From Promethearchaeota archaeon (GTDB taxonomy: Archaea; Asgardarchaeota; Lokiarchaeia; Sigyniarchaeales; Sigyniarchaeaceae), in assembly GCA_016932935.1 (NCBI GenBank), contig JAFGBX010000082.1:1-56792 (forward strand): 56,792 nucleotides of DNA. The letters run 5' to 3'. Numbering within the stretch: position 1 is the first letter of the stretch; the number at the start of each line of letters is the position of its first letter. The notes beneath the pieces were generated by a model. That model was not told the origin of the DNA. It ran no database searches and saw nothing but the letters and a program-made list of their open reading frames with translations. This document shows, piece by piece, positions 1 to 21,756 of this stretch. The position numbers and the translations under genes are program-made.

Positions 1-2254
1 GAGCCACCGCCGCCGTCGCAGCTCCCGTGGCCGCCGTGATCACGTGGTCCTGCGTCGCAGTCCCGCCCGCGTTAACAATGACCGCCGCCGGGTTCGGGAA
101 AGTGAGACCCGTGTACGACCCGTCGTCGACCGTCGCGTCGACCGTCGCCTGCGTACCGCCCGTGTTCAAGAACGTGACCCGCAGCGTGATCGTCTCGCCG
201 CTGATATACGGCCCGGGGTTCCAGCGCGGGGACGAGATCGACAAGCCCGTGATCGCCACGTTGGCCCGGGCCTGGATGTTCACGAGGATCGTGTCGGGGG
301 TCGGATCCCCGCTGAGCGGCCGCCCGGTGATTGCCTCGGTGCCCGTCCACGTGACCGTGAGCGTCACCGCCGCCGTCGTCGCGCCAGCCGATATGGTAAT
401 GAGATGATCTTGTGTCATTGTTGTATCCGCTGCGACCGTGACGGCCGCAGGGTCGTTGAACGAGAGCCACGTGTACGCCCCGGCGTCCAGCGTGCCGTCG
501 ACTGTCGCACCCAGGCTGCCCGTGTTAGCAAAGGTGACCCGCAGGGTGAGCGTTTCGCCGCCGACGTAGGGGCCAGGCGCCACGCGGGGCGCAATGATCG
601 CCAGGCTCGTGATCGACACGCTTCCACTACCGATTAATATGGCGATCGTGTCGGGGGGACTGTCACCGCTCATGGCTCTGCCTGAGTACGCCTCGATACC
701 GGTCCAGACCGCCGTGATGGTCACCGACCCCGACATCGCACCTGCCGCCAAGGTGAGGAGGTGTTCTTGCGTGCTCGTGCTGCCCGCGTTTATCGTGACC
801 GACGCCGGGTTGCCAAACGTGATTCCCGTGTACGCACCATCGTCCAACGTCGCGTCGACCGTCGCCCGCGTGCCGCCCGTGTTCTGGAACGTCACGCGCA
901 GCGTGAGGGTCTCGCCGCCGATGTAGGAACCTGGTGCCGGGCGTGGCGATGTGATGACCAGCGACGTGATCGACACGGCTGCCCGGGCCTGGATGTTGAT
1001 CGCCAGCGTGTCGGCCGGCGTGCCGCCGCTGATCGGGCGCCCCGTGGCAATGATGGTGCCTGTCCACGTGGCTGCGAGAGTCACCGCCGCAGTCGGCGCG
1101 CCTGTTGCGATGGTGATCGCGTGGTCTTGCGTGCTCGTGCCGCCCGCCGCGACCGTGACCGCCGCCGGGTCGCTGAACGTGAGGCCCGTGTACGTGCCGT
1201 CGTCGACCGTCGCGTCGGCCGTCACCGACGTGGGGCCAGTATTGGCGAACGTGACGCGCAGCGTGAGGGTCTCGCCGCCGACGTAGGGGCCGGGAGCTGC
1301 CCTCGGCGACATGGCCGCCAACGAAGTTATAGACACGCCGTGCCAGTAAATGTTCACGGGGATCGTGTCCGGCGGGGTGTCGCCGCTGATAGCGCGCCCG
1401 GAGATCGCCTCGGTGCCCGTCCACGTCGCCATGATGGTCACCGCTACAGCCGTGCCAGACACGACCTCGATCGTGAAGTCTTGCGAGGCCGTGCTTCCCT
1501 CGGGCACGACGACGGCGCCCGGGTCGTCCCACGAGAGGCCCGTGTAGGCGCCGTCGTCGATCGTCGCGTCGACCGTCGCTGCCGTGCCGCCGGTGTTGGC
1601 GAAGGTGGCGGTCAGCGTGAAGCTTTCGCCGTAGAAGTACGGGCCTGGCGAGGCGTGAGGTGCCAGGGCGAGGGCGACGATCGACACCGCGGAGGCAGAC
1701 TGGACGTGGATGGTTTCCGTGAGAATGGCGCCAGGAACGACGATTGGATTGCCCGTCGTGCCCTCCACGCCGGAGAACGACGCGTCGATCGTGCAGGAGC
1801 CGCTAACGGACGAGATCGAGACCATCGCGGTCACGTTCACCACGATCGAGCCGCCGGCAGGGACGGTCAAGCCCGTGACGTTGGCAGCAGTGATGGCCAC
1901 TGGCCCCGCGAACGACAGCCCGATGTCCCCGCCCTGGACGGGTAGGTCCCCGCCCGAGTTCGTCAAGGTGACTTGCACCGTGAGGCTCATGCCCGCCACG
2001 TACGTGGGAAGGCCCGAGATGTCGTTCACGCTGGAGATCTGCAGCTGGGATCCCGATGCCCGCGCGGGGGTTGCCTCGAAGCGGGGCGACTGCACGGGAT
2101 CCACGCAGCGGCTATCACCGTCCCCCATTTGCGATACAAAGGCGATGCAGATTACCGCGACGGTGCACAGTAGGCTCAGCGCGACGACCCGAAGGCCGAC
2201 ATCCGCCAGCGCCGGTTTGGAATCCCCGGCCTTGAAACCCGAGACGCGTCTCAC
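1..2254 (-). CDS. Surface/secreted repeat protein. The N-terminus is in the window and the C-terminus runs off the window start. It has a membrane/signal anchor plus tandem ~119-aa beta-sandwich (CARDB/Ig-like) repeats.
   Basis: Absent from the ORF track because it is open to the window edge. My minus-strand translation starts at GTG 2254, with GGAGG about 9 nt upstream. It reads VRRVSGFKAGDSKPALADVGLRVVALSLLCTVAVICIAFV (hydrophobic anchor). Five repeats follow with the pattern SPR.APGPY.GGETLTLRVTF.NTGGT.ATVDAT.DDG.YTG.TF.DPAAVTV.AG.T.TQDH.IT...TWTG. The frame stays open to base 1. The + strand ORFs listed here (27..407, 761..1945 and others) are R/P-rich shadow frames. Confidence 0.75.
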   Translation of the reverse strand, partial: MRRVSGFKAGDSKPALADVGLRVVALSLLCTVAVICIAFVSQMGDGDSRCVDPVQSPRFEATPARASGSQLQISSVNDISGLPTYVAGMSLTVQVTLTNSGGDLPVQGGDIGLSFAGPVAITAANVTGLTVPAGGSIVVNVTAMVSISSVSGSCTIDASFSGVEGTTGNPIVVPGAILTETIHVQSASAVSIVALALAPHASPGPYFYGESFTLTATFANTGGTAATVDATIDDGAYTGLSWDDPGAVVVPEGSTASQDFTIEVVSGTAVAVTIMATWTGTEAISGRAISGDTPPDTIPVNIYWHGVSITSLAAMSPRAAPGPYVGGETLTLRVTFANTGPTSVTADATVDDGTYTGLTFSDPAAVTVAAGGTSTQDHAITIATGAPTAAVTLAATWTGTIIATGRPISGGTPADTLAINIQARAAVSITSLVITSPRPAPGSYIGGETLTLRVTFQNTGGTRATVDATLDDGAYTGITFGNPASVTINAGSTSTQEHLLTLAAGAMSGSVTITAVWTGIEAYSGRAMSGDSPPDTIAILIGSGSVSITSLAIIAPRVAPGPYVGGETLTLRVTFANTGSLGATVDGTLDAGAYTWLSFNDPAAVTVAADTTMTQDHLITISAGATTAAVTLTVTWTGTEAITGRPLSGDPTPDTILVNIQARANVAITGLSISSPRWNPGPYISGETITLRVTFLNTGGTQATVDATVDDGSYTGLTFPNPAAVIVNAGGTATQDHVITAATGAATAAVA
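40..1700 (-). repeat. Five tandem ~357-bp coding repeats inside the surface-protein gene
   Basis: The landmark cgtcgaccgtcgcgtcgaccgtcgcc and close variants recur near 125, 487, 845, 1200 and 1555, a spacing of about 355-362 bp. This matches the ~119-aa protein repeat. Confidence 0.8.
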
Positions 2255-7215: not shown

Positions 7216-9093
7216 TCACCCCCGATGCCGCTCGAGGAACCGCCGCAAGCCATCGACGACCCCCTCCCAGAACGACTCGGAGATGCGCGTCTCGACGAGC
7301 GCGGGGTCGGCCTCGATGTCCCGCTTCAATGACACGGCGGTGCGGAAGCATACCTCGGCCTCGGCGAGACGGCCAGCGTCCTCCTCGAAGCTACCAAGCG
7401 CCCCCCAAGCGCCGGGGTTGAACGGGTTTTCCTTGAGGGCGATCTCCACACACCGCCTCGCATCGTGCGGATCCCCGGCCTCCTCGTGGAAGATGTGCAG
7501 GTTGTACCAGGCGATGGCATGGTGTGGCTGGTGGACGATCGCAGCTCTGTAGCAGAACGCGGCATCAGGCCTCGCCTTTAACCGGTCAAGCACGCGTCCC
7601 AGGCGGAACCAGGTCGGCGCGTCTGCGATGCCTCGGGCCGCTTCGGGACGCTGACCCATCGAGTCGATCCCATCCAGCACGACGCCGAGTGCCACCGCCG
7701 ACACCCTCGTGGCCTCCACCTGGTCGAACGGGATGCGTTCAGAACCGCTCCTGGCGACCGCCTCCAGCTCCGCCTGGAACCGCGCGTCGTGGCCTTTTAT
7801 CGCATCGCTAGCTTGCCGGTCGAGCCCCAGCTTGCATGCCTCGAGGTTTGCATCGAGCAGCTTCGTCGCCACGTGCCCAGGGCCGAGCATCGACCCGGCC
7901 ATGCGCGCGGCGCGGCCGTAGACGGCCACGTAGTCGGGGTGGCGCCCGATGCCCACGAAGTCCTCCATCCCGGCGACATCCCCCTCGTCGGCGGCGCGCG
8001 CCTGGAGTATGTCGAGGATGCAGGTCGCAAAGTTCCGGGACACCCTCAAGCCCCCACGCGAGAATACCTCGAGCAGCCCGCGCAACGGGGAGTCGAGGGA
8101 TCCCTGGTCGAAGAGGAACCGCACGAAATCCGCCTTTTCGACGTGCGAGCGGATCGTGGCTTCGTGCGGCTTGATCGCGCCCGGTTCGAGGTAGCGAGAG
8201 AGCCTCCGCGAGCCGTCGGCATCCGGCGCCCCGAAGATGCACCGTGCCATGTTGACGAAGGTGCGAAGCTCGTCGTTCTTGTACATCGGATCGCCCGCGT
8301 CGAGCTTCTCGAACTGGCCCATGACCTGCTCGAACCTCCTCCCGATCGCCGCGTGGCTGATCCACCGGGGATCCGTGACCCCGGCGAGGCGCCCGAGCAG
8401 CTGGTCGTACCGCAAGTCGTCGAACGACGTGCCTCGCGGGTTCGCCTCGGCGGCGGCGACGCGGGCGACGAGCGAGTTCACGAAGAGCGCGGCGGACACC
8501 TCGTTCGCGACCGCCTTGATCCCGTCGCCCACGCCAGCATAATCCGGTGCTTCGACCGCTATCGGCCCGCAGACCCAACGCGCCAGCTTTGGTAGGAGGA
8601 GCGCTTGTTTGGCCACCTGGGCGTTCATGTACGCGTGCACGGCGAAGTAATCTTGATCCACGTCCACGGCGAACCCGGACTCGATCCCGCGCTTGCCGTC
8701 GTACAAGGCCGGGACGGGGCACAGGATGTACGGGGTGCCGGCGACCTCCTGCACCCTGAAGCCCGCTCGACCCGCGATCTCGGCCGCGCCGGCCATTATC
8801 GCAGGCCGCTCGATGCCGGCGGCGCGCATCGCATCCCCCACGACCCTGGGGTCGACCGCCATCGCCAGTATGGAGCCGAGGTAGGCCGCCCGCGAGGCGG
8901 GGTTCCGGTCGAGGTCGCTGAAGGGCCGGAGGCCCTTGCACCCTCCGGACACGGAGACGGCCCCCTCGTGAGGCTTGACGCGCCCATGCGAGAACCGCGT
9001 GCACCTGGCCATTCCCGGAACTTTACGGGCGCTCCCGGTGGGCGCGAGCCCCTTGGCCGTGGTAGCTTTCTTTCCCGCTGGCTCGTGGGTCAT
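7216..9093 (-). CDS. TPR-repeat protein with a large uncharacterised N-terminal domain (paralog A)
   Basis: The C-terminal region reads AAFCYRAAIVHQPHHAIAWYNLHIFHEEAGDPHDARRCVEIALKENPFNPGAWGALGSFEEDAGRLAEAEVCFRTAVSLK, which is three TPR motifs. It is collinear with 9172..11097 over most of its length. The start is uncertain; ATG 9012 is possible. Confidence 0.7.
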   Translation of the reverse strand: MTHEPAGKKATTAKGLAPTGSARKVPGMARCTRFSHGRVKPHEGAVSVSGGCKGLRPFSDLDRNPASRAAYLGSILAMAVDPRVVGDAMRAAGIERPAIMAGAAEIAGRAGFRVQEVAGTPYILCPVPALYDGKRGIESGFAVDVDQDYFAVHAYMNAQVAKQALLLPKLARWVCGPIAVEAPDYAGVGDGIKAVANEVSAALFVNSLVARVAAAEANPRGTSFDDLRYDQLLGRLAGVTDPRWISHAAIGRRFEQVMGQFEKLDAGDPMYKNDELRTFVNMARCIFGAPDADGSRRLSRYLEPGAIKPHEATIRSHVEKADFVRFLFDQGSLDSPLRGLLEVFSRGGLRVSRNFATCILDILQARAADEGDVAGMEDFVGIGRHPDYVAVYGRAARMAGSMLGPGHVATKLLDANLEACKLGLDRQASDAIKGHDARFQAELEAVARSGSERIPFDQVEATRVSAVALGVVLDGIDSMGQRPEAARGIADAPTWFRLGRVLDRLKARPDAAFCYRAAIVHQPHHAIAWYNLHIFHEEAGDPHDARRCVEIALKENPFNPGAWGALGSFEEDAGRLAEAEVCFRTAVSLKRDIEADPALVETRISESFWEGVVDGLRRFLERHRG

Positions 9094-9171: not shown

Positions 9172-11097
9172 TCAACGTGGCGGGGACTGGGCGTCCCGGC
9201 GCTCCGGTTCCTTGTCGGGCAGCCGGTGCAGGTTGTCCTCGACGATCTCCCAGAGCCTCGGGGAGACGCGTGTCTCGACGACCGCCGGATCCGCCTCGAT
9301 GTCCTCCTTCAGGGACAGCGAGGTGCGGAAGCACAACTCGGCCTCGGCGAACTTGCCCGCGTTCCTCTCGAAGACGCCGAGGGCGTTCCATGCGTGCGGG
9401 TTGAAGGGGTTTTCCCTGAGGGCGATGTCCACGCACCGCCGTGCCTCTATGAAATCCCCCGCGTCGTCGTAGGCGATGTGCAAGTTGTACCAGGCCAAGG
9501 AATGGCTTGGCCGGTGGGCGATCGCGGCCTTGTAACAGAACGCCGCATCTGGTTTGGTGCTGACGTTGTCGAAGACCCGCCCGAGCCTGAACCATTTGGA
9601 CGCGTCCCCGATCGCGAGCGCCGCTTCGGGTCGATCTGCCATCGAGTCGATCCCGTCGAGCACGATCCCGATCGCCTTGTCGGGCACGCCCATCACGTCC
9701 ACCTGGTCGAAGGGAATGCATTCCGCGCCGGCCTTCGAGACCACGTCGACCATCGCCTGGAGCCGCGCCTCGTATTCCTTCCCGGAGGCACCGGCGTGCC
9801 GTTCGATCGAGAGCTTGCACGCCTCGAGGTGGGCACGGAGCTGCTTGGTCGTCTCGTGGTTCGGCCCGAGCCGATCCGCGGCCAAGCCCGCCGCGCGCTG
9901 GTAGAGCGTCGCGTAGTCGGGATGCCGGCCGACCTCGACCACGTCCTCGAGGCCCGGAGAATAGGAGTTGCGAACTGCGCGCTCCTGGATGAAGTCGATG
10001 AGGTGGGTCCCGAACTCGCCGGAGATCCTCAGCCCGCCCCGGGCGAAGAGCTCGAGGAGGCCGCCTACCGGGGACTCTAGATACCCGCAGCCTTCCAAGA
10101 AGCGCAAAAACTCCGCAGACTCGACGTACGCGCGGATCGCGCCCTCATGCCGCTTGATGGCAGCAGGCTCCAGGAACCGCGGGAACTTGTGGCCGGTCAC
10201 GAAGCGGGTATCGCCGTAGAGGAAACGCACGAGGCCGAGGAAGGCCCGACGCTTGTTGTTCTCGTGGAGCGGGTGGGCCGCGTCGAGGGTCTCGAGCAGG
10301 CCCATGACCCGCTCGAACCGCCGCCCGATCGCCGCGCGATTGATCCACCGGGGCCCCGTGACGCTGGCGAGGCAGTCGACCAGCTGGGCGTACGGGTCAC
10401 TGGCGAATTGCCCTTGCGGGGCGTCGCTCCCGGCTGCGGCGTCGGCGACGATCGAGTTCACGAAGAGCACGGCCGACACCTCATTCGCGAGCGCCCTGAT
10501 TTTGCCGATTGACTTCGCAGGAACCGCGAGCGGCCGGCAGGCTCGGCGTGCCAGCTTGGAGGCGATGAAGTACTCGTCTGCGGCCCGGTCGTGCATGTAA
10601 GCATGCACGGCGAACCGGTGCCGGTTCACGTCCACGGCGAACCCCGACTCGACGCCGCGCTTCGGGTCGTGGAGGGACGGGACGGGGCACAGGATGTACG
10701 GTGTGCCGGCCACCTCCCGCACCCTGAAGCCCGTGCGGGCCGCGATCTCGGCCGCACCTTGCCCGAGGACGTCCCTCTCGATCCCGGCCCAGAGCACCAG
10801 GCTTTCCAGCGCCGCCGGGTCGACCGCCCTCTCGAGGATGGTCACGCGGTACCGGAATCGGGCATCCCGCAGGCTGAAATTAGCGGCGTTAGGCACGCAC
10901 GGGCCGACTTGCCGTTCCCGATCCGGCCCCGCGAGCCCTTGCACGCCTGGATCGTTCCCTGGATCCTGGATGGGGGCGCGGTTTTTGGGGGTGATCTCCT
11001 CCTTTCGTCTTAGCCCGCTTGGCATGCCGTCCACCTCGTCACGTGCTCGGTCGCGGGGGAGGAGGGCCCGGTCGCCGGTCCGGCCCTCGCCTCGCAC
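9172..11097 (-). CDS. TPR-repeat protein, tandem paralog B
   Basis: Shares long blocks with paralog A (GFRV.EVAGTPYILCPVP.L.D.KRG.ESGFAVDV, ANEVSA.LFVNS, GPRWI..AAIGRRFE.VMG, IPFDQV, VLDGIDSM..RPEAA, and a TPR tail ending EDIEADPA.VETR.S). The likely true start is ATG 11025 (MPSGLRRKEE). Confidence 0.7.
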   Translation of the reverse strand: MRGEGRTGDRALLPRDRARDEVDGMPSGLRRKEEITPKNRAPIQDPGNDPGVQGLAGPDRERQVGPCVPNAANFSLRDARFRYRVTILERAVDPAALESLVLWAGIERDVLGQGAAEIAARTGFRVREVAGTPYILCPVPSLHDPKRGVESGFAVDVNRHRFAVHAYMHDRAADEYFIASKLARRACRPLAVPAKSIGKIRALANEVSAVLFVNSIVADAAAGSDAPQGQFASDPYAQLVDCLASVTGPRWINRAAIGRRFERVMGLLETLDAAHPLHENNKRRAFLGLVRFLYGDTRFVTGHKFPRFLEPAAIKRHEGAIRAYVESAEFLRFLEGCGYLESPVGGLLELFARGGLRISGEFGTHLIDFIQERAVRNSYSPGLEDVVEVGRHPDYATLYQRAAGLAADRLGPNHETTKQLRAHLEACKLSIERHAGASGKEYEARLQAMVDVVSKAGAECIPFDQVDVMGVPDKAIGIVLDGIDSMADRPEAALAIGDASKWFRLGRVFDNVSTKPDAAFCYKAAIAHRPSHSLAWYNLHIAYDDAGDFIEARRCVDIALRENPFNPHAWNALGVFERNAGKFAEAELCFRTSLSLKEDIEADPAVVETRVSPRLWEIVEDNLHRLPDKEPERRDAQSPPR

Positions 11098-11205
11098 TCC
11101 CGCTGATCGGGCGTCGCTGGTCTAATAATGCCGCTGGGACGGGGAGTCTCCCCCGGTTGCGGGCATCCCTGCTAATACGTGGGAGTGGTGTGCTCAAGCA
11201 CGCGC

Positions 11206-11215
11206 GGTTTATAGC
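11206..11215 (+). promoter_or_regulatory. TATA-like element upstream of the STAND-GTPase gene
   Basis: GGTTTATAGC lies about 35-40 nt upstream of ATG 11248. Confidence 0.35.
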
Positions 11216-11247
11216 GGCGGGCCGCCCAGTGATCACATGACCCTTAC

Positions 11248-13677
11248 ATGACTCCTAGGCTCCCGCGAACCTCATCGTTCAATATCGAGTGCGAAGGCGC
11301 CACTGGTTCTATCAATCAATCGCGGGAGGGTGAAGTGTTTATGGGAAGCCTTCGCTTGATTCGGAAGGGGAGACTCGGCGAGCCTGGTTCGACTGGCCAA
11401 GGCGTGGAGATCATAGCGCTGAAAGCCTCGCCGGTTGAAGGCCCGACTCACCTATCGGCGGGTTATAACTGCGTTTACCTCAGGCGGAACATGGTCTATT
11501 ACCATAATCGGAAGAGGATGGATCCGGCTCTTGAGGTGCTCGACTTGTCTTGCATCTTATGCGCCCGGATAGCGAAAGTTCCCCAGGACATCGACGTCCA
11601 CGTGATAATGCAAGACGTGGACAACGGCGTAATGATGGAGTGCATCGGCCAATTCCACTTTGGCCCAGGATTACCGCCCCAAGAGACCCTCGTCGGGCTC
11701 TTCTTGAAGAAGATCAACCGGAAGCCCACCGACGCGAACTTCTGGCACATCGACAAGATCTTCGTTCCCCCGCGGGAGTACGATGCGATCAAGCAAGCCC
11801 TCGCGACCAAACGGATTGTCATCATCACCGGCACGCCGGAGTACGGCAAGACCTACGTTGCCGTCCGCCTCCTTTGGGAGTACTTCTCCCGATCCGACGG
11901 AACCCGCGGTTATAACCCCGTCATGTATTCAGGGGGGGACACATCCTTGAACAGCGCGAGGGAGCTCGCGGAACTCGAGTCGACACCCTTGCCGCGCACC
12001 ATCGCCTACTTCGAAGACCCGTTCGGCACGATCGTCTACCAGGACAACTTGTTTATCTCGCAGCTCACCCGCAGGATGGACATGATCATTGATTGGATCC
12101 AGAAGACGCAGGACACCTATGTGATCATAACGTCCCGGGAAGAGATGTTCAAGCAATTCAAGTATAACTGCACGGAAAACGCGATCGAGCTGTTCGATCA
12201 GCAGATAGAGCAACAACTCTGCATCAAGCAGGATTCCTACGACGTTGAGAGTAGGAAACACATGCTCCTGGAGTGGGCCAAGGTCTTCGGGTGCAAGTGG
12301 ACGAAAGACCCTGCATTGGCCAACGTCGTGGCCGGCTGGCTAGATATCAAGGAGAACTTACCAACGCCGTTGAACATCAAGGACTATGCCTTGAAAACTA
12401 CGCACTTATCCGACGAAGGGCAGTTGCGGGACGAGATGAAGTCGATGTCCCGCAAGACACCAGAGATCTTCGCCTCCGAGATCATCAACATGAGCCCGGA
12501 CAAGCAGCTATTCCTATCGATATTATCCTTGATCCGGCGGCCCGCCAACTACGAGTATTTCTCGAACCTGTACCACCAGGCGTTGAGGGACGTGGAAGTC
12601 ATCGCCGTCATCGGCGACGCCGGTGTTGCCAAATATTATAGCACCGACCAGATCCTAGAATGGTTCAAGAACGATAAGATCAAGATAATGAGATATATCG
12701 AGGGGGACGATGAGATCGTGCAGCTGGACTTTGCACATCCGTCGTACGACCAAGCCATCGACTACCTTATAAACAAAGGAGGGCCTTCGAACGCGATCGA
12801 GACGAAACGGTTCGCGGAGGTCTACTCGCGTGTTACTGCCCTTGTTACGGCAAACCTCGGCATTGAAAGCATTGACAAGGTGAGAATACCGATGGGGCCG
12901 ACCCGATTGACTCCGATGGCGCGTCCCGCCCCAATTGCTATCCCGCCCCATGTGCTATTAGCAGTTCGCGATCTGATGAAAGGCAGCCAGATCTACACGG
13001 GGCATGCACGCCGATCCCCGTCCCTCGAGTACCTCAGGCGGTTTTTCGTCGACACGGCGAGACCGTTTAAGGAGGGGCTTGATGATCACATCTGGAAGAT
13101 CGTCGTGGGGGGACCACCAGGATCCGGGAAAGAAGCGATACTCAAACGGAATATCCATAACGAATACATAGACGATATGAGGATGACGGTAGGGGCGCAG
13201 TTCCATACGCAATTGCTCGAGCGCGCGGGGCGGAAAATCAGCCTGGTCCTTTGGGACTTGAGCGGGCAGGATCGGTTCCGGTTCATCCACGGGGATTACG
13301 TGAAGGGGGCTGCTGGTTGCATCGTGTGCTTCGACATGAGCCTGCGTGCGATGCTCGGCGACGCCTGGCGATGGATACGGCTCTTCAAAGACAATGCCCA
13401 ACACGCCCCGATCCTCCTCGTCGGCACCAAACTCGATCTCGTGACCGACCTGGAGGAATTGAAAGCGGTCGAGGAGGAGGCGAAACAACTCGTCGAAGAG
13501 CACGGCCTAATCGGTTTCGTTCCCGTGTCGCAAAAAAGCCATATCAACGTGGATGAAGCCATCTACTTCCTGGTCGACACGCTGCTGCATTATGCATCTA
13601 TGGCAAGGGAGCTCGACCGCCACAATGATCGGGATACCATGCCCACGACCTCAATTAAGAGAAAAAAAGCCTCGTGA
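11248..13677 (+). CDS. STAND-type P-loop NTPase fused to a C-terminal Rab/Ras-like small GTPase domain
   Basis: 809 aa. NTPase: Walker A IITGTPEYGKTYVA, Walker B IAYFEDPFG, then YVIITSREE. C-terminal GTPase (about 13093..13590): G1 GGPPGSGKE (E where S/T is expected), G3 WDLSGQDRF, G4 VGTKLD, G5 VSQKS. Confidence 0.7.
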   Translation: MTPRLPRTSSFNIECEGATGSINQSREGEVFMGSLRLIRKGRLGEPGSTGQGVEIIALKASPVEGPTHLSAGYNCVYLRRNMVYYHNRKRMDPALEVLDLSCILCARIAKVPQDIDVHVIMQDVDNGVMMECIGQFHFGPGLPPQETLVGLFLKKINRKPTDANFWHIDKIFVPPREYDAIKQALATKRIVIITGTPEYGKTYVAVRLLWEYFSRSDGTRGYNPVMYSGGDTSLNSARELAELESTPLPRTIAYFEDPFGTIVYQDNLFISQLTRRMDMIIDWIQKTQDTYVIITSREEMFKQFKYNCTENAIELFDQQIEQQLCIKQDSYDVESRKHMLLEWAKVFGCKWTKDPALANVVAGWLDIKENLPTPLNIKDYALKTTHLSDEGQLRDEMKSMSRKTPEIFASEIINMSPDKQLFLSILSLIRRPANYEYFSNLYHQALRDVEVIAVIGDAGVAKYYSTDQILEWFKNDKIKIMRYIEGDDEIVQLDFAHPSYDQAIDYLINKGGPSNAIETKRFAEVYSRVTALVTANLGIESIDKVRIPMGPTRLTPMARPAPIAIPPHVLLAVRDLMKGSQIYTGHARRSPSLEYLRRFFVDTARPFKEGLDDHIWKIVVGGPPGSGKEAILKRNIHNEYIDDMRMTVGAQFHTQLLERAGRKISLVLWDLSGQDRFRFIHGDYVKGAAGCIVCFDMSLRAMLGDAWRWIRLFKDNAQHAPILLVGTKLDLVTDLEELKAVEEEAKQLVEEHGLIGFVPVSQKSHINVDEAIYFLVDTLLHYASMARELDRHNDRDTMPTTSIKRKKAS

Positions 13678-13880
13678 ATAAGCCCATTCACGTCAAACTG
13701 CTTGTCATCTTCAAGGTCGATAAGTGGAGGCCTTCCGGAAGGTTAGATGGGGCATATGAGAAGAAGATGAGATAAAAGTGAGGGCACTAGGATTCCAGTC
13801 AGAACAGAGCCCCCTCCCAGCCCCACGGTCGATCGAGAGGGATACCTGGCTACGTCCTGGATCCCTTCACGTCTTCGGAA

Positions 13881-15965
13881 TCACTTGCCCATTCGTGATT
13901 TTATTGTCTTTCGCACCCGAGCGCAGTCGCCGGAGGGGGAAGCGACCCTCAAATAGACGTGCATGGTTTCGGGGAGTTGGTCACGGGCGATCGCACGGGG
14001 ATCCAGTCGAAACACGACCCGTCCTTCTTCGACGCCTATCGGGTGAGAGAAGTAGAATAAACCCCGCCTCAGCGGAATCACGTCGGCCGAGTGGGTGAGC
14101 ACGACCCCTTGGTGGGTTTCCAAGGCGAACAGTTGTGTTTTATGAACATCCTTGTACGATGGAAGATGAATCTCGAGAATAGCCTTGCTTCCAGAAACAT
14201 TGTCAATCCAATACTCGCCAACCACTTCCACCCCGGAGGAGATGAAGCGCGTGTAGTTTGCCTTGCTCCGCTCCACGATACGAGCTTTCGTGCTGAACCA
14301 CCAATCCACCAGATGATGCATGGTGAGGGACATAGGGAAAGGATCCCTCTCGCCGCCTGGCGTCGCGTCGCCCGGATCTGCATCCACCCTTTTCATCCTC
14401 CCCCTTAACACTTCCACGATGTATCGGATTATCCCCATCTCGTTCTCTTGCAGGTCTTCCTTCTTGAAGTCGCTGAAGATGTTTACCAGGCCGCGTTTCC
14501 AGAACACGAGATCCGCGTCCAGCGCACCAAGAAAAAACACGGCGAGGAGATCAGCGTCTCGCTTTTGATTGTAGTTCATGAGGAGGAAGTACCTGTCCAC
14601 CGGGGAACCAGCGTCCCTCACGTGTTCCTCGATCGTCGCGAACAGGACTTCCAAAACGGCAGACGCCGATGCCGAATAGCTCCGGCCGATCGCGTCCTTC
14701 CCGATCAACAGCAAGTACCCGACGTATTCCGTGAAGGTGATGTCGCCCTGCTCATGCTTCCGATTGAGCCCAGATAGAATGAGCCTGACCATCCAGACGT
14801 GTTGCGGGTACGTGAGTAGAGAAGGTGCCAAGACCGCACGACGATGGATCGACCCCGTGCTGGGGGAATCGTCGTTCCACACGACTTCGAAGGCTGACGT
14901 GCAAGCGTTATACCGCGGGCCACCTAGCCTCTTGAACTCACGCATGAAATCGCTGAAATCGGCGAATTCGGGGGGCAACTTGATGGCACTCGAATACATC
15001 TCGAAATGAACGGTGTCCTCGTTTTTAGATGACAAGGCTGCGCTGCGATACGAGTCGACGATGGCGTTGAAGTCGGCCGCGGTGAACACGCGGCCGCGGG
15101 CCCGAGCGTTGACGCCCGTGAGTCGGAGAGTGTTCATATCGTCCCGAAACCGCCGCACCTCGTGATCCGATCGGAGATCCAAAAACTCGTCCGGGCTCAT
15201 GAACGCGAGACGGTTCTTGCCGATGACGAACAGGTCCATCATTTGTTCGGCGATCTCCTCATCGCTAAGGTTTCCACCGATGTTGGCCTTTTGATCTTGA
15301 AAACCAGAAATGACATGTTGGAAGCTATCCGATGGTGCTTCGACCTGGATGTTGTAGTGCTGCTGGTGCGCGTTCACATAGGCAGCGTTCAATTTTTCCA
15401 CGACGGATGCGCGCACGGGGTCGGGAACGCTGCTGCCACTTGCCCACTGCAAGATGGCCTCCCGGTTCATAACCGCATCCCTATCTGCGACCTCATAGAG
15501 CGCACGGCTATAATCTGGAAAATCGGTGGAGAATGAGATGCGAACCTGATCCAAGAAGCTTGCCTTCCCCAGGCCACCCATCTCGGCCGTGTTATACGGG
15601 ATGTAGTACCGGGCGCCCGACGCGAGCTTTTTCACGTCGCTCTTGTAAGGGATGCGTTGTGGGTACTCCTTCAGGTCGTACCCATCTATGTACTCGTCGA
15701 TCGAAGAGAACTTGTCGTCGACCGCGAGCGCCACGTAACCATCATCAAGGTAGCTGGGGTGATCCGCCAGCAACCGATGGGTGTGGGGGGACTTCAATAA
15801 GAACGACGTCGGGATGTTGACGTGGTCGTTCACGAGCAGCATCTGCCGGAAGGTAGTCACGAGGTCGATCGCGCCGAGATGGTGCGTCTGCTGGAACAAT
15901 AGATCCGCTGAAAACAAGGAAACGGTCGCTGGGGGGATTCTATCTCTCCGGAGGAGTGAACCCAT
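13881..15965 (-). CDS. Hypothetical protein (694 aa)
   Basis: Long ORF with balanced composition; the overlapping ORFs are short shadows. Convergent with 11248..13677. I recognise no motif. Confidence 0.6.
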   Translation of the reverse strand: MGSLLRRDRIPPATVSLFSADLLFQQTHHLGAIDLVTTFRQMLLVNDHVNIPTSFLLKSPHTHRLLADHPSYLDDGYVALAVDDKFSSIDEYIDGYDLKEYPQRIPYKSDVKKLASGARYYIPYNTAEMGGLGKASFLDQVRISFSTDFPDYSRALYEVADRDAVMNREAILQWASGSSVPDPVRASVVEKLNAAYVNAHQQHYNIQVEAPSDSFQHVISGFQDQKANIGGNLSDEEIAEQMMDLFVIGKNRLAFMSPDEFLDLRSDHEVRRFRDDMNTLRLTGVNARARGRVFTAADFNAIVDSYRSAALSSKNEDTVHFEMYSSAIKLPPEFADFSDFMREFKRLGGPRYNACTSAFEVVWNDDSPSTGSIHRRAVLAPSLLTYPQHVWMVRLILSGLNRKHEQGDITFTEYVGYLLLIGKDAIGRSYSASASAVLEVLFATIEEHVRDAGSPVDRYFLLMNYNQKRDADLLAVFFLGALDADLVFWKRGLVNIFSDFKKEDLQENEMGIIRYIVEVLRGRMKRVDADPGDATPGGERDPFPMSLTMHHLVDWWFSTKARIVERSKANYTRFISSGVEVVGEYWIDNVSGSKAILEIHLPSYKDVHKTQLFALETHQGVVLTHSADVIPLRRGLFYFSHPIGVEEGRVVFRLDPRAIARDQLPETMHVYLRVASPSGDCARVRKTIKSRMGK

Positions 15966-16316
15966 AATATCACCTTGTATTGCACGAATTCACCTTTGCC
16001 AATCATCGCCTTTGCAGGCTTAAAAGACTGCCTTGAATAACGGCTCGGACAGCGGCAGCTATGAACAAACCATGCTTCGGACTCGTGGTAGATCCCGGAT
16101 TGTCCCGAGCGATCGATCCACCAGCTGCGGCTATAAAAGCTTGGGGGGCGAGAGGTATCTTGTTTTACGTATTCGATCGGGAGGAAAGCACCGATGGGGA
16201 ATCGGTCGAGCCCGGGTCATCGCGCTCCCATAACTTCAATACCCCAAAAGGATGAAAAGGAAGTTACTACGGTAGCCGGTCCGGCGCCGAGAACACGACG
16301 AGGGATTGAATAAGCC

Positions 16317-17135
16317 ATGGCCCGTGTCGAAAACAAGAACCCCACGCATCTCAAGATGAAGCTCGAAGAAACCAGGAAAAGGATCGAAGAGCTTAGAGGC
16401 TTGGTCAACGCGCACAAGAAAAAGGGATCCATAAAGGAACTCTCTGATACTTACGCCTTCCAGCTCGACCAAGCCGAGCGCGAGGAGGAAGCGATCCTCT
16501 TGGAGCTCCAGGGAGGCCCGCTATCAGACGAGTTCACGATAATGGCTCGCTCCGAGTCAGAAGAGAGGAAGGAGCCCCGAAGCAAGACGGATTACCGGAT
16601 CAACAACGTCGTCGCGACTGCTCAACTGAAGATCAACGAGGGAGACAAGATCGATCTCAGCAAGGCGGCAAGAGCGATAGAGACGGCGGAATACGTCCCC
16701 GATGATTTCCCCGCGATGACCGTGCAAATGGTGGATCCCCCGTGCACGGTTCTGGTGTTCGACAACGCGAAGATCGTGATGTCGGGATTGAAGGATCCGA
16801 AGGCCGTTGACACGGTTCCTACCGCTACTGTTAGAGAACTAAAGAAAGCTGGTTTGGACGTCGAGCAAGGTGGGGGAGCGACCATAACGAACGTCGTGGC
16901 TGGCGGGGAATTCGGCTTCGAGGTCGACTTGGAAGCGGTTTCAGAGTGCATCGCAAACGCGGTCTACGATACCGAGGTCTTTCCGGGCCTGACCTTGTAC
17001 CATCAAGATGCAGTAACATTCTTGATCTTCAAAAACGGGAAGTTCGTCTGCACAGGCGCAACCGTTGAAGCGGATATCGAGCGATCAATCACCGATGTCT
17101 CGAAGATGATCAAGGAATACGACTATGCGAAGTAA
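16317..17135 (+). CDS. TATA-box-binding protein (TBP) fold paralog with a ~95-aa charged/coiled N-terminal extension
   Basis: Two TBP repeats: INNVVATAQLKINEGDKIDLSKAARAIETAEYVPDDFPAMTVQMVDPPCTVLVFDNAKIVMSGLKD and ITNVVAGGEFGFEVDLEAVSECIANAVYDTEVFPGLTLYHQDAVTFLIFKNGKFVCTGATVEADIE. Both match the archaeal TBP pattern (IENIVAS..L...LDL..V......EY.PE.FPG...R...P....L.F.SGK.V.TGAKS). The N-terminus MARVENKNPTHLKMKLEETRKRIEELRGLVNAHKKKG... is not found in canonical TBPs. Confidence 0.75.
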   Translation: MARVENKNPTHLKMKLEETRKRIEELRGLVNAHKKKGSIKELSDTYAFQLDQAEREEEAILLELQGGPLSDEFTIMARSESEERKEPRSKTDYRINNVVATAQLKINEGDKIDLSKAARAIETAEYVPDDFPAMTVQMVDPPCTVLVFDNAKIVMSGLKDPKAVDTVPTATVRELKKAGLDVEQGGGATITNVVAGGEFGFEVDLEAVSECIANAVYDTEVFPGLTLYHQDAVTFLIFKNGKFVCTGATVEADIERSITDVSKMIKEYDYAK

Positions 17136-18635: not shown

Positions 18636-19541
18636 ATGGAACGTGATGAGAAAGCTTTGATCTTGGTGAGGCTGCATCGCAAGGATCCCCTCGCGGACTC
18701 CTTGGACCTGCGAGCCACGGGCAGAGTCGGAGTCGTGCTGTATTATCTGGAGGGAGAACCCTCGAAGATATATGCGGTTGCTCGGAAGGAGGCGGGATAC
18801 CTGCTCAAATACATGAACTTCGGCGGCTTGGACGGCGTCAAGTCCAAGATCACGGTACAGCGGATCGGTAACCTTAGGACGCGGTTCCTCTTTGAGAACA
18901 AGCAACGCGTCGCTTGCACCAAGAATCTCAGACCAAGGCTGTTGGAACACGTGAAGCTCGCCATCGGCTGGAGGGAACACGCGTTCTTCTATCTCTTGAC
19001 CTTCGGGAGGCTCACGACGACCGATTTCTATGATTACATGAAGTATAGGCTCTGCATCCTCAACATGAAAGGGCGGAAAGTCTTTTTTAAACACATAAAG
19101 CCAATTTTCAAGGCTCTGCTAAAAGCGGGCCACCTCCAAGTGACCGAGAGGGCCTGGTGCGCACAGCGTGGTGCGGCCTTCACGATAACGATCACACGCC
19201 AAGGTGGAAAATACCGTTGCACGTGGATGGACAAAGACGGGAAAGAAGTTGGCACGAACGACCTCGACGACGTCGAAGAGGTGGTCGATCCCAAAGGTGG
19301 GAGGGCGTGCACCGATCCTGACGGCGCCGCGCAGCAAATAGAGGCTAACGTGGTAGAGCACGCGTACTCCCTCACAAGCCCCGGAGAGGCTTTCTGCTTC
19401 GGCCAGCTCGAGAACATGAACAGCAACGGCCCCATCAAGGAGTACCTCAAGGCCGTCTACGAGTCGTGCCACCAAGAGGTAGAGAAGCAGTTCTTCGACC
19501 ACATGGCGAATTACTACAAGATGGAGGCGCTTTTCCTATGA
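18636..19541 (+). CDS. Hypothetical protein carrying module B (wHTH-like + Cys-containing segment)
   Basis: 301 aa. HAFFYLLTFGRLTTTDFYDYMKYRL...FFKHIKPIFKALLKAGHLQVTERAWC...EHAYSLTSPGEAFCFGQL...IKEYLKAVYESCHQEVEKQFFDHMANYY is collinear with the C-terminal half of the next gene. Confidence 0.6.
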   Translation: MERDEKALILVRLHRKDPLADSLDLRATGRVGVVLYYLEGEPSKIYAVARKEAGYLLKYMNFGGLDGVKSKITVQRIGNLRTRFLFENKQRVACTKNLRPRLLEHVKLAIGWREHAFFYLLTFGRLTTTDFYDYMKYRLCILNMKGRKVFFKHIKPIFKALLKAGHLQVTERAWCAQRGAAFTITITRQGGKYRCTWMDKDGKEVGTNDLDDVEEVVDPKGGRACTDPDGAAQQIEANVVEHAYSLTSPGEAFCFGQLENMNSNGPIKEYLKAVYESCHQEVEKQFFDHMANYYKMEALFL

Positions 19542-20551
19542 TGACGAGGGTGCACTTACCGGGTATCTTCGAGAGGGGCTTGCTCCTCTGCATCAAAAAG
19601 ATCTACGGACGCTCGCCGTTCGCGCTCGATGACGACGAGGTGGAGGCGATCCGAAACGAGTTCATGGATCTGTTTTCCGGCCTGAAGGGCGAGAACAATG
19701 ACCTAGGCTTCTTCGAGGATTTCCCCTTGCTGACCAGGGACATCGACTTGCGTATCGTGAAGATGGTCGAGATGGGGTTGATCGACGTCGACGAGGGGGC
19801 GGGAGACGATCCAGACGGGAAGCCATTCAAGATCTCGGAAAAAGGATGGACACTCGTCCGGGAGGAACTGGACGATCCTGCCCTCGGCCGCGGTGTTGCA
19901 AACACATACCAAGGCCCTGACGCAGCCGCCCGGGTTCCGATCTTCCCACCCATCTCGCCACAGATAACGGGTGCAGGTTGGAAAGGCATTGGTTGGCGAG
20001 ATCTCACCTACTTCTACCTCCTCACGTTTGGGAAGCTCACGACGTCCGGCTTCTACGATTTCTTGCAATGGCACCTCAAGGTGCCCGATCCGGACACGTA
20101 TAGGAGGCTCTTCTTTAAACACGTCAAGCCCGATATTGAGGCGCGAATGGCTGCAGGGCACCTCCGGGTGACCGAGAAGGCCTGGTGCGGCGGATGCAAT
20201 AAGACCTTCGACGTATCGACCACGAAACAAGGTGAAGTCTACCAGCGAAAGTGGATCGACAACACGGGAAGAGAGCACGTGGAGGGTCTCGCCTCTGCGA
20301 AGGATGCCGTGAGACAAGAATGCAAGAGGAAGTGCCCGGCCCATGCCCAGCCGCCATTAGCGAGCGTGACGGAGCACGTGTACACCCTGACGGCCGCTGG
20401 TGAGGCGTTCTGCTCGGCCGAGCTCAAGCGCCTCTTCGAAGACCGGGCCATCAAGGCCTATCTAAAGAAGGTATACGAGTACTGCCACGCCGAGTTAAAA
20501 TCTCGGTTCTACGGCCACGCGGCGTATTACCGAAGGATGGCGGAACCCTAA
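19538..20551 (+). CDS. Hypothetical protein carrying module A + module B (paralog array member 2)
   Basis: The start was moved to ATG 19538 because the ATGATGA overlap with the upstream stop (19539..19541) suggests translational coupling. Module A: GLLLCIKKIYGRSPFALDDDEVEAIRNEFMDL...DIDLRIVKMVEMGLIDVDEGAGDDPDGKPFKISEKGWTLV. Module B: FYLLTFGKLTTSGFYDFLQWHL... Confidence 0.65.
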   Translation: MMTRVHLPGIFERGLLLCIKKIYGRSPFALDDDEVEAIRNEFMDLFSGLKGENNDLGFFEDFPLLTRDIDLRIVKMVEMGLIDVDEGAGDDPDGKPFKISEKGWTLVREELDDPALGRGVANTYQGPDAAARVPIFPPISPQITGAGWKGIGWRDLTYFYLLTFGKLTTSGFYDFLQWHLKVPDPDTYRRLFFKHVKPDIEARMAAGHLRVTEKAWCGGCNKTFDVSTTKQGEVYQRKWIDNTGREHVEGLASAKDAVRQECKRKCPAHAQPPLASVTEHVYTLTAAGEAFCSAELKRLFEDRAIKAYLKKVYEYCHAELKSRFYGHAAYYRRMAEP

Positions 20552-20553
20552 CC

Positions 20554-21123
20554 ATGAGGTTGGACGAAGTTGGACACCTCGCCAAGCGGGTCGTAAGGGG
20601 AAACCCGCATCCCACCCTTGTGGGTGGCTTCGAGATCGGGTTGCTCCTCTGCATCGAGAAGAGGCACGGGCGCTCGCCGTTCGAGCTCGATGACGACGAG
20701 GTCGAGGCGATCCGAGGCGAGTTCATGGATCTGGTGGCCAGTCGGAAGGACGAGGATAGCGACCTATGCTTCTTCGAAAATTCCCCCCCGCTGCCCAGGG
20801 ACGTCGATTTACGCATCGTGAAGATGGTCGAGATGGGACTGATCGACGTCGACGAGGGGGCGGAAGCTGATCCCGACGGGAAGCCCTTCACGATCTCGGA
20901 GGGCGGCTGGGCACTCGTCCTTAAAGAAATGAAGGATTCCAACCGTGGCCGCGCTGTGGACGAGATGGATCCAGGCCCTCAGGAGACCACCAGGGCTGCG
21001 ATCTTCCCGCCCATCTTGCCTCAGATTACTGGCGCCATGCGGGAGGACGGGCCGAAGCCGGTAGCGCGTGGAAAAGGGGGGGGACGGTCAAAGAAGCGCT
21101 CGGAGAACCGTTCGTTGAAGTGA
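20554..21123 (+). CDS. Hypothetical protein carrying module A only (array member 3)
   Basis: The ATG lies 2 nt after the previous stop. GLLLCIEKRHGRSPFELDDDEVEAIRGEFMDL...DVDLRIVKMVEMGLIDVDEGAEADPDGKPFTISEGGWALV, followed by a basic tail. Confidence 0.65.
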   Translation: MRLDEVGHLAKRVVRGNPHPTLVGGFEIGLLLCIEKRHGRSPFELDDDEVEAIRGEFMDLVASRKDEDSDLCFFENSPPLPRDVDLRIVKMVEMGLIDVDEGAEADPDGKPFTISEGGWALVLKEMKDSNRGRAVDEMDPGPQETTRAAIFPPILPQITGAMREDGPKPVARGKGGGRSKKRSENRSLK

Positions 21124-21243
21124 GGAATCATGCCGCGGGAATGAGTTTGCCCCCCTCCCATTTGAGCCTTAACATAATTGTTCCCCAAGAATGAACGCCG
21201 CGTCCACCACGCATATTTCTATTCGATCCGCCAGTACTAGGAC

Positions 21244-21756
21244 ATGGGAAGAGCGATCGCAGCAGAGGTCGGAGGACGCAAACTCATGAAGCATCGCACC
21301 AAGGCGCCATCGGTAATGGCCGCGGTAAAGCCCGACCGGCGCGGGGCGCCCGCACGGGGGGCAAACGCGAGCAAGCACTACCGCGCCCCATGCACGAGAA
21401 CGGAGCGGCTAGCGGGGGATTTCGAGGCGTCCTTGCTATCCAGTATCGCTCTCACGCACGGCTGCTCGCCGTTCTCGCTCGATGAAGAGGCGCTCGAGGC
21501 GATCCACGGTGGCTTCGTTGACTTGGCCGCCAGGTCGGAGGGTGTCAAGGACGACCCCGGCTTCTTCGATGTGTTCCCCGCGCTGCCCAGGGACGTCGAC
21601 TTGCGCATCATAAGGATGGTCGAGATGGGTTTCATCGACGTCGACGAAGGGATGGAGGACGGCCCCGGCGGGGAGCCCTTCTCGATCTCGGCGAAGGGAT
21701 GGGCGCTCGTCGACAAGGCGAAAGCGGCCCGGAAGGAGCACGCGTGGGGGGCATGA
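21244..21756 (+). CDS. Hypothetical protein carrying module A only (array member 4)
   Basis: SLLSSIALTHGCSPFSLDEEALEAIHGGFVDL...DVDLRIIRMVEMGFIDVDEGMEDGPGGEPFSISAKGWALV. This is a more diverged copy of module A. Confidence 0.6.
   Translation: MGRAIAAEVGGRKLMKHRTKAPSVMAAVKPDRRGAPARGANASKHYRAPCTRTERLAGDFEASLLSSIALTHGCSPFSLDEEALEAIHGGFVDLAARSEGVKDDPGFFDVFPALPRDVDLRIIRMVEMGFIDVDEGMEDGPGGEPFSISAKGWALVDKAKAARKEHAWGA

Follow-up and report, generated by a model that had tools for sequence, protein, structure and literature searches.

A Rab-like GTPase domain with a P-loop glutamate, fused to an nSTAND3 NTPase in an Asgard archaeon

STAND NTPases and NLR proteins are modular, domain shuffling in STAND NTPases is a known kind of event, and a new C-terminal domain in one of them is unsurprising in itself. 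Ras-like G domains likewise occur inside large signalling or conflict proteins, as in the ROCO proteins (LRR-Roc-COR) and the AP-GTPases. Here we describe an open reading frame (ORF) at positions 11248 to 13677 of a 56,792-nucleotide stretch of DNA from a Promethearchaeota archaeon (GenBank assembly GCA_016932935.1, contig JAFGBX010000082.1; this whole stretch is called the window), which joins an nSTAND3-type STAND NTPase to a Rab-like GTPase domain in a single product, the fusion protein. What makes it notable is that the captured module belongs to an Asgard family of Rab-like GTPases, proteins discussed as forerunners of eukaryotic membrane-traffic switches, and that it is altered exactly at the catalytic Mg ligand. 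As a single case from an uncultured genome it is a lead and not an established system.

Among described proteins, the nSTAND3 STAND NTPases of Methanophagales, Candidatus Argoarchaeum and Candidatus Atabeyarchaeum (P0002-P0120) share with the fusion protein the motifs GTxEYGKT, YFEDPFG, VIITSREE, LPTPL and HPSY. They carry an N-domain of cyclase fold and HEAT-like repeats, whereas the fusion protein lacks the catalytic N-terminal part and has a G domain instead of the repeats. The stand-alone Asgard Rab-like GTPases (Candidatus Sigynarchaeum springense P0122, locus L004) have in common with the fused copy TKLD, WDL[GS]GQ, the switch I Thr of TVG and the absence of a prenylation Cys. These are single-domain proteins with a GGxGGVGKT P-loop, whereas the window's copy is fused, reads GGPPGSGKE and has a diverged switch I and G5.

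Other comparisons are looser. ROCO proteins possess COR and LRR, whereas the fusion protein has neither and ends about 25 residues past the G domain; the G domain is here added to a STAND ATPase and does not take the place of that ATPase as the central switch. To our knowledge, the Roc domains of ROCO proteins keep a canonical P-loop. The layout is conceptually that of the plant NLR 'integrated decoy' receptors, although these belong to the NB-ARC clade and not to nSTAND3. PseudoGTPases such as pG1 and pG2 of p190RhoGAP (PMC5593906) are likewise G-domain folds inside a larger protein, with altered G motifs from which a loss of the normal nucleotide cycle is predicted; the fused domain, a candidate for this class, is altered only in G1 and partly in G5 and switch I, with the Lys, G3 and G4 kept. 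The prokaryotic inactive-domain decoys (Kaur et al. 2020, PMC7159879) have in concept the same arrangement, namely a STAND ATPase with a probably inactive copy of a domain that has active counterparts in the lineage. NLR-type systems have already been recorded in Asgard archaea, in a survey that makes no mention of GTPases, and the published architectures of Asgard small GTPases comprise longin and roadblock fusions, with STAND not mentioned.

A STAND NTPase and a Rab-like GTPase in one reading frame

Profile searches find Pfam nSTAND3 (PF20720) and Pfam Ras in one ORF that runs uninterrupted for 809 codons from its first ATG to a stop codon at 13675-13677 (plus strand, as are all features given below for this ORF). 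A sequence-only reading of this DNA, made by a model without database searches, had proposed a STAND NTPase covalently fused to a Rab-like GTPase, and both halves are what it took them to be.

The nSTAND3 match covers residues 172-341 (11761..12270) with an E-value of 3.3e-22 and 79.3 bits against a cut-off of 27.2, and AlphaFold2 (AF2) models this NTPase core with predicted local distance difference test (pLDDT) values mostly of 75-98. Walker A reads GTPEYGKT (residues 195-202, nucleotides 11830-11853). AYFEDPFG (residues 253-260, nucleotides 12004-12027) carries the Walker B strand and its acidic pair (TIAYFED), as had been read from the sequence; IITSREE (residues 293-299, nucleotides 12124-12144), which had been counted as part of Walker B, lies instead in the next strand, YVIITSREE. 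The AF2 strands of the core are at residues 190-194, 251-256 (Walker B) and 290-296 (YVIITSREE), and the motifs match the nSTAND3 family consensus, xIxYFEDPFG and YVIITSREE. Going by the motifs of STAND and NB-ARC proteins, we take YVIITSREE to be the sensor-1 'TTR/TSR' motif. By these motifs the ATPase core is intact in Walker A, Walker B and the sensor-1-like strand, and ATP binding or hydrolysis as well as nucleotide-dependent oligomerisation are predicted for it.

The helical region of the nSTAND3 module follows (residues 342-540, 12271..12867). It is recognised by BLAST and by the motifs LPTPLN and HPSY (residue 497), and is modelled confidently to about residue 430 and with low confidence beyond. 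BLAST homology spans query residues ~150-530 in 15 homologs. All 119 homologs listed for the full-length protein match only residues ~150-540, at 31-43% identity, and all carry PF20720; none of the 119 has a Ras domain. Their sources are Methanophagales, Argoarchaeum, Methanofastidiosia, Atabeyarchaeum and many metagenomic archaea. The usual build of these relatives is an N-domain of ~200 residues, the NTPase and helical module, and C-terminal HEAT-like repeats of ~38 residues. Homology to the fusion protein ends at residues ~525-551, which is the exact start of the HEAT-like repeats, and the length after HPSY is 312 residues in the fusion protein against a family median of 279.

At the other end, Walker A stands at position 195 against a family median of 241. 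In the relatives' N-domain the motifs DILGF, DDW and PLEIAIG are invariant (D[IV][LIV]GF occurs in 93 of the 119 homologs), and some relatives have trypsin or TIR N-domains in place of the cyclase-fold one. The family N-domain gave no match in Pfam, and by sequence profile only spurious designed-repeat matches in the PDB; its AF2 model (pLDDT 84) matches class III adenylyl/guanylyl cyclases in Foldseek (E ~1e-6, probability 1.0). On that model the invariant aspartates would lie at the expected metal-ligand sites of a cyclase, and the subfamily looks like an effector-switch-sensor STAND with a cyclase-type effector. The fusion protein does not have this tripartite layout and shares with it only the NTPase and helical module. 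What it retains of the N-domain is, by alignment, a remnant of the C-terminal third at residues 79-148 (11482..11691), with the family residues Y85, L95, D99, C105 and I108, while the columns of DILGF, DDW and PLEIAIG, the putative catalytic residues, are gaps; BLAST alignments with some homologs extend back to residues 59-64. As an observation apart from the fusion, the order of cyclase, nSTAND3 and then HEAT-like repeats suggests a widespread archaeal family (homologs P0002-P0120).

A linker of 72 residues (541-612, 12868..13083) separates the two halves. It has no homologs and no Pfam match, and its pLDDT is 26-42. It is rich in Pro, Arg and Ala (GARP fraction 0.39), and its GC content at third codon positions (GC3) is 0.67, compared to 0.79 in the NTPase part. 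Given this composition, the lower GC3 and the lack of a homolog or a predicted structure, the linker may be recruited, formerly non-coding sequence.

The Rab-like G domain (residues 613-785, 13084..13602, pLDDT 90-98) starts at residue ~613, at about the start-codon position of its stand-alone relatives. Pfam Ras matches residues 617-779 (E 1.1e-27, 97 bits against a cut-off of 21.6), Roc (1e-19) and Arf also match, and NCBIfam small_GTP (TIGR00231) does so at 1.8e-17. These matches and the one to nSTAND3 lie well outside the range of chance. The best PDB sequence matches are Rab11A, Rab14 and Ypt31 (E ~1e-24), and in Foldseek the domain model aligns with Rab11, Rab4, Rab8 and Rab1 at a TM-score of ~0.9 and a root-mean-square deviation of ~2 A. 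Since the best matches in sequence and in fold are Rabs, the label 'Rab-like' is justified. G2 is represented by Thr647 (13186-13188), and the other motifs claimed for the domain are all present: G3 WDLSGQ (residues 669-674, nucleotides 13252-13269), G4 TKLD in its family-typical form (residues 727-730, nucleotides 13426-13437) and G5 SQK (residues 761-763, nucleotides 13528-13536), for which other family members have SSK or SAK.

A search with only the C-terminal part recovers 45 proteins, nearly all of 178-205 residues. The best relatives, 55-60% identical and ~186 residues long, come from Sigynarchaeum, Lokiarchaeota and Promethearchaeota and bear annotations as small GTP-binding proteins or members of the Rab family. 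Their genes lie in housekeeping neighbourhoods, with gyrase, aminotransferase, PAN, TFIIB and PFOR genes adjoining, and the Sigynarchaeum springense metagenome-assembled genome (MAG) holds at least 11 paralogs of the family. Stand-alone relatives share 71-76% identity among themselves, against an average of 55% for the fused copy. A neighbour-joining tree places the fused copy within the family and gives it a terminal branch ~3.7 times as long as the median. These comparisons trace the G domain back to a conserved family of small GTPases that Asgard archaea encode as stand-alone proteins. Looking across both halves, the alignments indicate that the HEAT-like repeat array has been replaced by the Rab-like G domain at a domain boundary. 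The G domain thereby occupies the usual sensor position of STAND proteins, and we take the HEAT-like array of the relatives to be the sensor or autoinhibitory part.

In a HMMER search of 1.84 billion protein cluster representatives, which gave 26,949 matches, we inspected the best 150, all above 134 bits; within that set, only the window's own protein combines nSTAND3 and Ras. Any fusion with a G domain of the Rab-like family would exceed 134 bits on the G domain alone, and the uniqueness applies to fusions of this kind, with more distant STAND-Ras combinations outside the survey. Long Ras matches among the 150 are multi-Ras proteins. P0166, which ranked just below the window's protein and has two matched stretches, was considered as a second fusion and rejected, as it consists of trypsin and two tandem nSTAND3 modules. 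A survey of GTDB, with one genome per species and queried with the family alignment, gave the same picture. The G domain's homolog is a stand-alone ORF in each of the best 79 loci (about 175-190 residues, none above 260, median 175 from the first start codon), which lie in Asgard MAGs and one MAG labelled Bathyarchaeota.

The P-loop glutamate and the nucleotide pocket

G1 of the fused domain is GGPPGSGKE (residues 621-629, nucleotides 13108-13134). The sequence-only reading gave the motif GPPGSGKE at 13108..13134; position 13108 starts GGPPGSGKE, and GPPGSGKE proper runs from 13111. Its proposal that Glu replaces the Mg ligand agrees with the alignment, in which Glu629 corresponds to Rab11A Ser25 (Ras Ser17), the Mg-coordinating residue. 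A comparative study of P-loop NTPases (bioRxiv 10.1101/2022.06.23.497301) describes the Ser/Thr that follows the Lys of Walker A as an Mg ligand under strict conservation. As exceptions it lists the Gly of NMP kinases and the Asn of torsinA and DnaC, whose ATPase activity is very low; Glu is not listed.

Among the 43 aligned relatives, G1 is GGxGGVGK[T/S] in 42 and has GKR in the most distant one, and GKE occurs in none. Of the best 79 GTDB loci, 77 read GxxxxGK[T/S] and the matches in the other two start after the Gly run and show KTT, so Glu follows the Lys at none of them. Absent from all of these relatives, the Glu is private to the fusion protein. Conservation of the Glu would have supported the sequence-only reading; the isolated substitution found here is the outcome that it had itself counted against its claim.

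Glu629 is not the only change in the pocket. Within G1, Pro stands at the position of Ras Gly12, and Ser takes the place of the conserved Val that precedes GK. Measured against the family consensus, the identity of the fused copy is 0.50 for G1, where family members average 0.97; the corresponding values are 0.46 against 0.86 for switch I, 0.38 against 0.80 for G5 and 0.44 against 0.76 for b4-a3. For b1, b5-G4 and the interswitch strands, the fused copy is as close to the consensus as the family is on average. Overall, the fused domain deviates at 5 of 46 highly conserved columns, compared to 0-2 in the closest 20 relatives. As G1, switch I and G5 have diverged while the fold core stays at the family mean, the divergence is, on the alignment, uneven across the G domain and concentrated on nucleotide-contacting elements. 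Given the Glu at the Mg-ligand position, the fused G domain is probably hydrolysis-dead and pseudoGTPase-like, with nucleotide binding weakened or altered.

The junction and the Glu codon are both well supported as genuine. A public sediment-metagenome run contains 99% of sampled words of the fusion region, and Logan contigs, which were built independently, cover 12062-13152 and 13125-14200 with zero mismatches; the first of them takes in the last part of the STAND module, the entire linker and also the P-loop. The codon for Glu629 is GAA at 13132-13134, and two nucleotide substitutions are required to turn a Thr codon (ACN) into GAA, one being insufficient. Because the contigs are free of mismatches and the Thr-to-Glu exchange needs two changes, we conclude that the fusion and the Glu are real in the sample DNA. 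For the same reasons an assembly chimera or a sequencing error was rejected as the main explanation.

Readings of the fusion

We offer a function for the fusion protein as a hypothesis. Tentatively, and with rather less than even confidence, we favour a remodelled conflict-type STAND protein in which the captured Rab-like domain is impaired in hydrolysis, replaces the sensor repeats and acts as a binding or sensor module. The G domain would have given up the normal Mg-dependent GTPase cycle and, standing where the sensor usually is, would bind another protein. Once such a partner is bound, the protein would be free to undergo the ATP-dependent oligomerisation that is typical of STAND proteins; candidates for the partner are regulators of the cell's own Rab-like GTPases, or proteins with which an invader targets those GTPases. 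Since the cyclase part is lost, the output would be something other than nucleotide signalling. The oligomer would act by sequestration or as a scaffold, or recruitment would take place through its G domain. That inactive copies of cellular domains are captured as decoys or dominant-negatives is a theme already described for NTPase-centred conflict systems (PMC7159879).

Several findings weigh against this proposal. G2 Thr, G3 DxxGQ and G4 TKLD are kept, which leaves room for nucleotide binding or activity. Switch I, a main partner-binding surface, is strongly diverged and fits poorly with a faithful GTPase-mimicking bait. The NTPase half is itself divergent, with ~30 deviations at conserved columns (residues ~150-420) against a median of 6 for its homologs over the whole alignment. 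The N-terminal effector is truncated, and the fusion protein has no recognisable output domain. PADLOC, whose models include known anti-phage STAND systems such as Avs and bNACHT, assigns it to no validated defence family above threshold; its weak matches, in the P-loop region, are to the candidate family PDC-S73 (3.8e-8, 30.6 bits) and to mad8 (3.8e-5). The full-length, 1.84-billion-representative and GTDB searches returned no ortholog with the fusion or the Glu: no protein with both domains and none above ~44% identity. Without an ortholog, there is no evidence of purifying selection on either feature. Finally, no RNA run contains the fusion gene among the three metatranscriptome runs of the same study, an absence that says little, as those runs are from other samples and are kept only as contigs.

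The strongest alternative, which we consider unlikely though it deserves serious weight, is a neutral or decaying fusion. A rearrangement at the edge of the island would have truncated the 5' part of an nSTAND3 gene. By a later deletion, the gene of a small GTPase next to it would have become attached to the 3' part, with formerly non-coding DNA in between; the product would have no selected function, and the P-loop changes would be drift. This would suit a singleton with private substitutions that has lost both ends of the family architecture and whose halves both sit on long branches. It would also suit the composition of the locus: GC drops from ~0.68 to ~0.56 at 11100-11200, exactly where the fusion ORF starts, and the linker is Pro/Arg/Ala-rich, lower in GC3 and without predicted structure. 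That no transcript evidence was found points the same way. Counter to this, 809 codons are open without a frameshift, whereas an unselected frame at ~55% GC would close. Walker A and B, the sensor-1-like strand, LPTPLN, HPSY, G2, G3 and G4 are all kept, the breakpoint respects the boundary between NTPase module and repeats, and AF2 is confident for both domains. The pattern of divergence also argues against decay, as a uniform process would hit all regions and not spare the fold core while the pocket drifted.

A second alternative, which strikes us as improbable, is that the G domain is still an active switch. In this case Glu629 would take over Mg coordination, or the domain would work in an Mg-independent mode, and would regulate the STAND ATPase in cis in the manner of Roc in ROCO proteins. 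Arguing for such a switch, the G2 Thr, a G3 DxxGQ with the catalytic Gln, TKLD, and the Ser and Lys of G5 are kept; so is the P-loop Lys, which both Ras domains of the LRR protein described below lack. A carboxylate could in principle ligate Mg2+, and Ras-like G domains are central switches in some prokaryotic conflict systems, for example in AP-GTPases. Against it stands the strict conservation of Ser/Thr after the Lys, where the exceptions with Gly or Asn show hydrolysis that is lost or very low, or a ligation mediated by water. Glu at this site, as noted above, recurs in none of the 43 relatives or 79 loci, the Gly12 position is Pro, G5 and switch I are strongly diverged, and the Pfam scan reveals no COR or other known GTPase-coupling domain.

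A bolder version of the favoured sensor-module reading, which we regard as a long shot, would make the fusion protein an NLR-like receptor that guards the Asgard Rab-like trafficking GTPases. Its G domain would be an integrated decoy that mimics the GDP-bound or empty state, with the Thr-to-Glu exchange acting like the classic dominant-negative Ser-to-Asn, and the STAND module would be triggered when this decoy is engaged by a hijacked exchange factor or by a protein of a virus or mobile element. We know of no invader factor that targets Asgard small GTPases. If this version were true, invaders of Asgard archaea would already target small GTPases, and guard/decoy immunity there would predate eukaryotes.

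Least probable of the alternatives is an artefact or a pair of products, with a chimeric junction or a G domain translated alone from an internal start (Met ~590): the locus comes from a single source sample at a coverage of about 7-9x and the linker has in-frame Met codons, but the first Logan contig crosses the junction without a mismatch and the second continues from 13125, the frame is continuous without a stop codon, and stand-alone relatives begin ~8 residues before the IWK strand, where the fusion has no start codon.

The gene and the island around it

The window holds two further Ras-like domains, both in an LRR protein (26446-31296, minus strand) of 1616 residues with long LRR arrays, two Ras/Roc domains and no COR domain. 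Their P-loops, CDGGVGGC and GASAVGSS, both lack the Lys, and their G3 motifs are altered (FWSMGKQ, FDIGSQ). The gene lies 54 nucleotides downstream of a NACHT-like STAND gene (31351-34527). These observations uphold two statements of the sequence-only reading, that the window contains three Ras-like domains with non-canonical P-loops, the fused one being the third, and that this is the second STAND NTPase linked to one. Its further suggestion of a recurring STAND plus small-GTPase logic stands within the window, with two instances, and finds no counterpart outside it, there being none in the best 150 matches, the 119 homologs or the 79 loci. We regard it as a local pattern with two instances and not as a demonstrated type of system.

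The three Ras domains are only 27-29% identical pairwise and fall on different branches of the Asgard family. This low mutual identity indicates independent captures, each having lost the canonical P-loop, and a recent duplication of one Ras module within the island was rejected on the same grounds. Non-canonical P-loops occur in all three fused domains of the window and in one of 43 stand-alone relatives (hypergeometric probability ~3e-4, a rough comparison). Taken with the P-loop-dead Ras domains of the NACHT/LRR pair, the fusion protein suggests a recruitment of disabled small-GTPase domains into Asgard conflict islands. If such recruitment were general, it would offer an entry point to the partners of Asgard small GTPases and to pre-eukaryotic guard/decoy immunity.

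The NACHT-like and LRR genes also share a small feature of their own. Copies at 31354-31599 and 31051-31296 (both minus strand) each give a sub-threshold match to Pfam Ribosomal_60s (E 0.015 and 0.05), the N-terminal dimerisation region of the stalk proteins P1/P2. The copies may be a heterodimerisation handle that links the two gene products.

The fusion ORF encodes 809 residues if counted from its longest N-terminus. Start candidates are M1 (11248), M32, which has a GGAGG-like site, and M91 (nucleotide 11518), the start of the public gene call of 719 residues. As the family-conserved residues at positions 79-119 partly precede M91, a start upstream of it is favoured; the public call is probably too short, with M1 or M32 the better candidates on the alignment. 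Residues 1-78 (11248..11481) form an orphan region without a Pfam match, with AF2 pLDDT of 22-31 and unmatched by the family N-domain profile. Should translation in fact begin at M32, this region may remain in part untranslated. Pfam and PDB sequence searches of the N-terminal 170 residues, the linker and the helical region gave no matches. In the full-length AF2 model (pTM 0.48) both domains are confident, the first ~145 residues and the linker are of low confidence, and the relative placement of the domains is unreadable.

A TATA-box-like hexamer, TTTATA, lies at 11208..11213 (plus strand), 40 nucleotides 5' of the ATG at 11248; going by pattern only, it is a possible archaeal promoter for a near-leaderless mRNA. 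A scan for sigma-70 promoters and intrinsic terminators, which is not meaningful for an archaeon, gave nothing decisive, and an Rfam scan of 10800-16400 found no match. The neighbours are a divergent TPR gene upstream (9172-11097, minus strand) and a convergent ORF downstream (13881-15965, minus strand), and the fusion ORF is thus a single-gene unit.

At its C terminus the fusion protein ends in the polybasic tail ...RDTMPTTSIKRKKAS (13633..13674), which has no Cys and hence no prenylation motif. Stand-alone relatives end differently, in ...QGATAQQ, and likewise lack a prenylation Cys. Contact of the polybasic tail with membrane or nucleic acid is speculation. Among the Rab-like relatives, the JGI metagenome protein P0147 (299 residues) has an N-terminal extension with CxxC pairs and is degenerate in G1 (GGVDKS), G4 (TDFD) and G5 (STR), which hints that canonical G motifs tend to be lost in fused copies of the Rab-like family.

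The fusion ORF forms the left edge of a lower-GC stretch at 12-34 kb, the variable island. Among the core genes of the high-GC flank are those for Nop56, an Elp3-like protein and a histone deacetylase, with a fibrillarin gene probably following Nop56. The best match of Nop56, at 81% identity, is its counterpart in a Candidatus Sigynarchaeota MAG, and its next matches are in other Asgard archaea. This places the host with Sigynarchaeota-like Asgard archaea; a methanogen or another euryarchaeon, considered at first in view of the 65% GC, was rejected as host on the same evidence. GC3 is 0.73 over the fusion ORF and 0.62-0.73 in most other island genes, compared to 0.86 in the high-GC flank overall and 0.81-0.88 in most flank genes measured. 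The island contains a TBP paralog, several family-less ORFs, a MotA/ZorA-like protein (weak match), the NACHT-like STAND gene and the LRR protein. The TBP paralog (16317-17135, plus strand; Pfam TBP 4.7e-35) has an N-terminal extension of ~90 residues and lies inside the island, in a non-housekeeping context.

We considered whether the island is a recognisable integrated element and rejected this, as there is no boundary tRNA or flanking direct repeat, the only tRNAs being at 2445-2624. No integrase appears among the ORFs scanned with Pfam, a scan that did not take in every island ORF. Just past the right edge, the ORF at 35745-39020 (minus strand) encodes 1091 residues with two P-loop modules, PADLOC HerA-like and mad8-like matches (E 1e-16) and a Pfam AAA_5/AAA_22 module. 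This HerA/AAA protein supports a defence or conflict character of the neighbourhood.

Directly upstream of the island edge, the ORFs at 7216-9093 and 9172-11097 (both minus strand) are tandem paralogs of ~630 residues with C-terminal TPR, 70-86% identical in nucleotide blocks at a spacing of ~1980 nucleotides. The intergenic segment at 13727-13778, behind the fusion ORF, contains the palindrome CCTTCCGGAAGG; with two mismatches, the segment is found again where three further contigs from the sediment-metagenome run end. It is a short dispersed repeat, in which Rfam finds nothing. Longer repeats occur at the left end of the window (5-1669; tandem repeats of 357-360 nucleotides, 4-5 copies, 62-78% identity) and inside the island around the ORF at 19466-20551 (19561-21713; three repeats of ~300 nucleotides, 70-83% identity), and both sets indicate repetitive protein-coding sequence.

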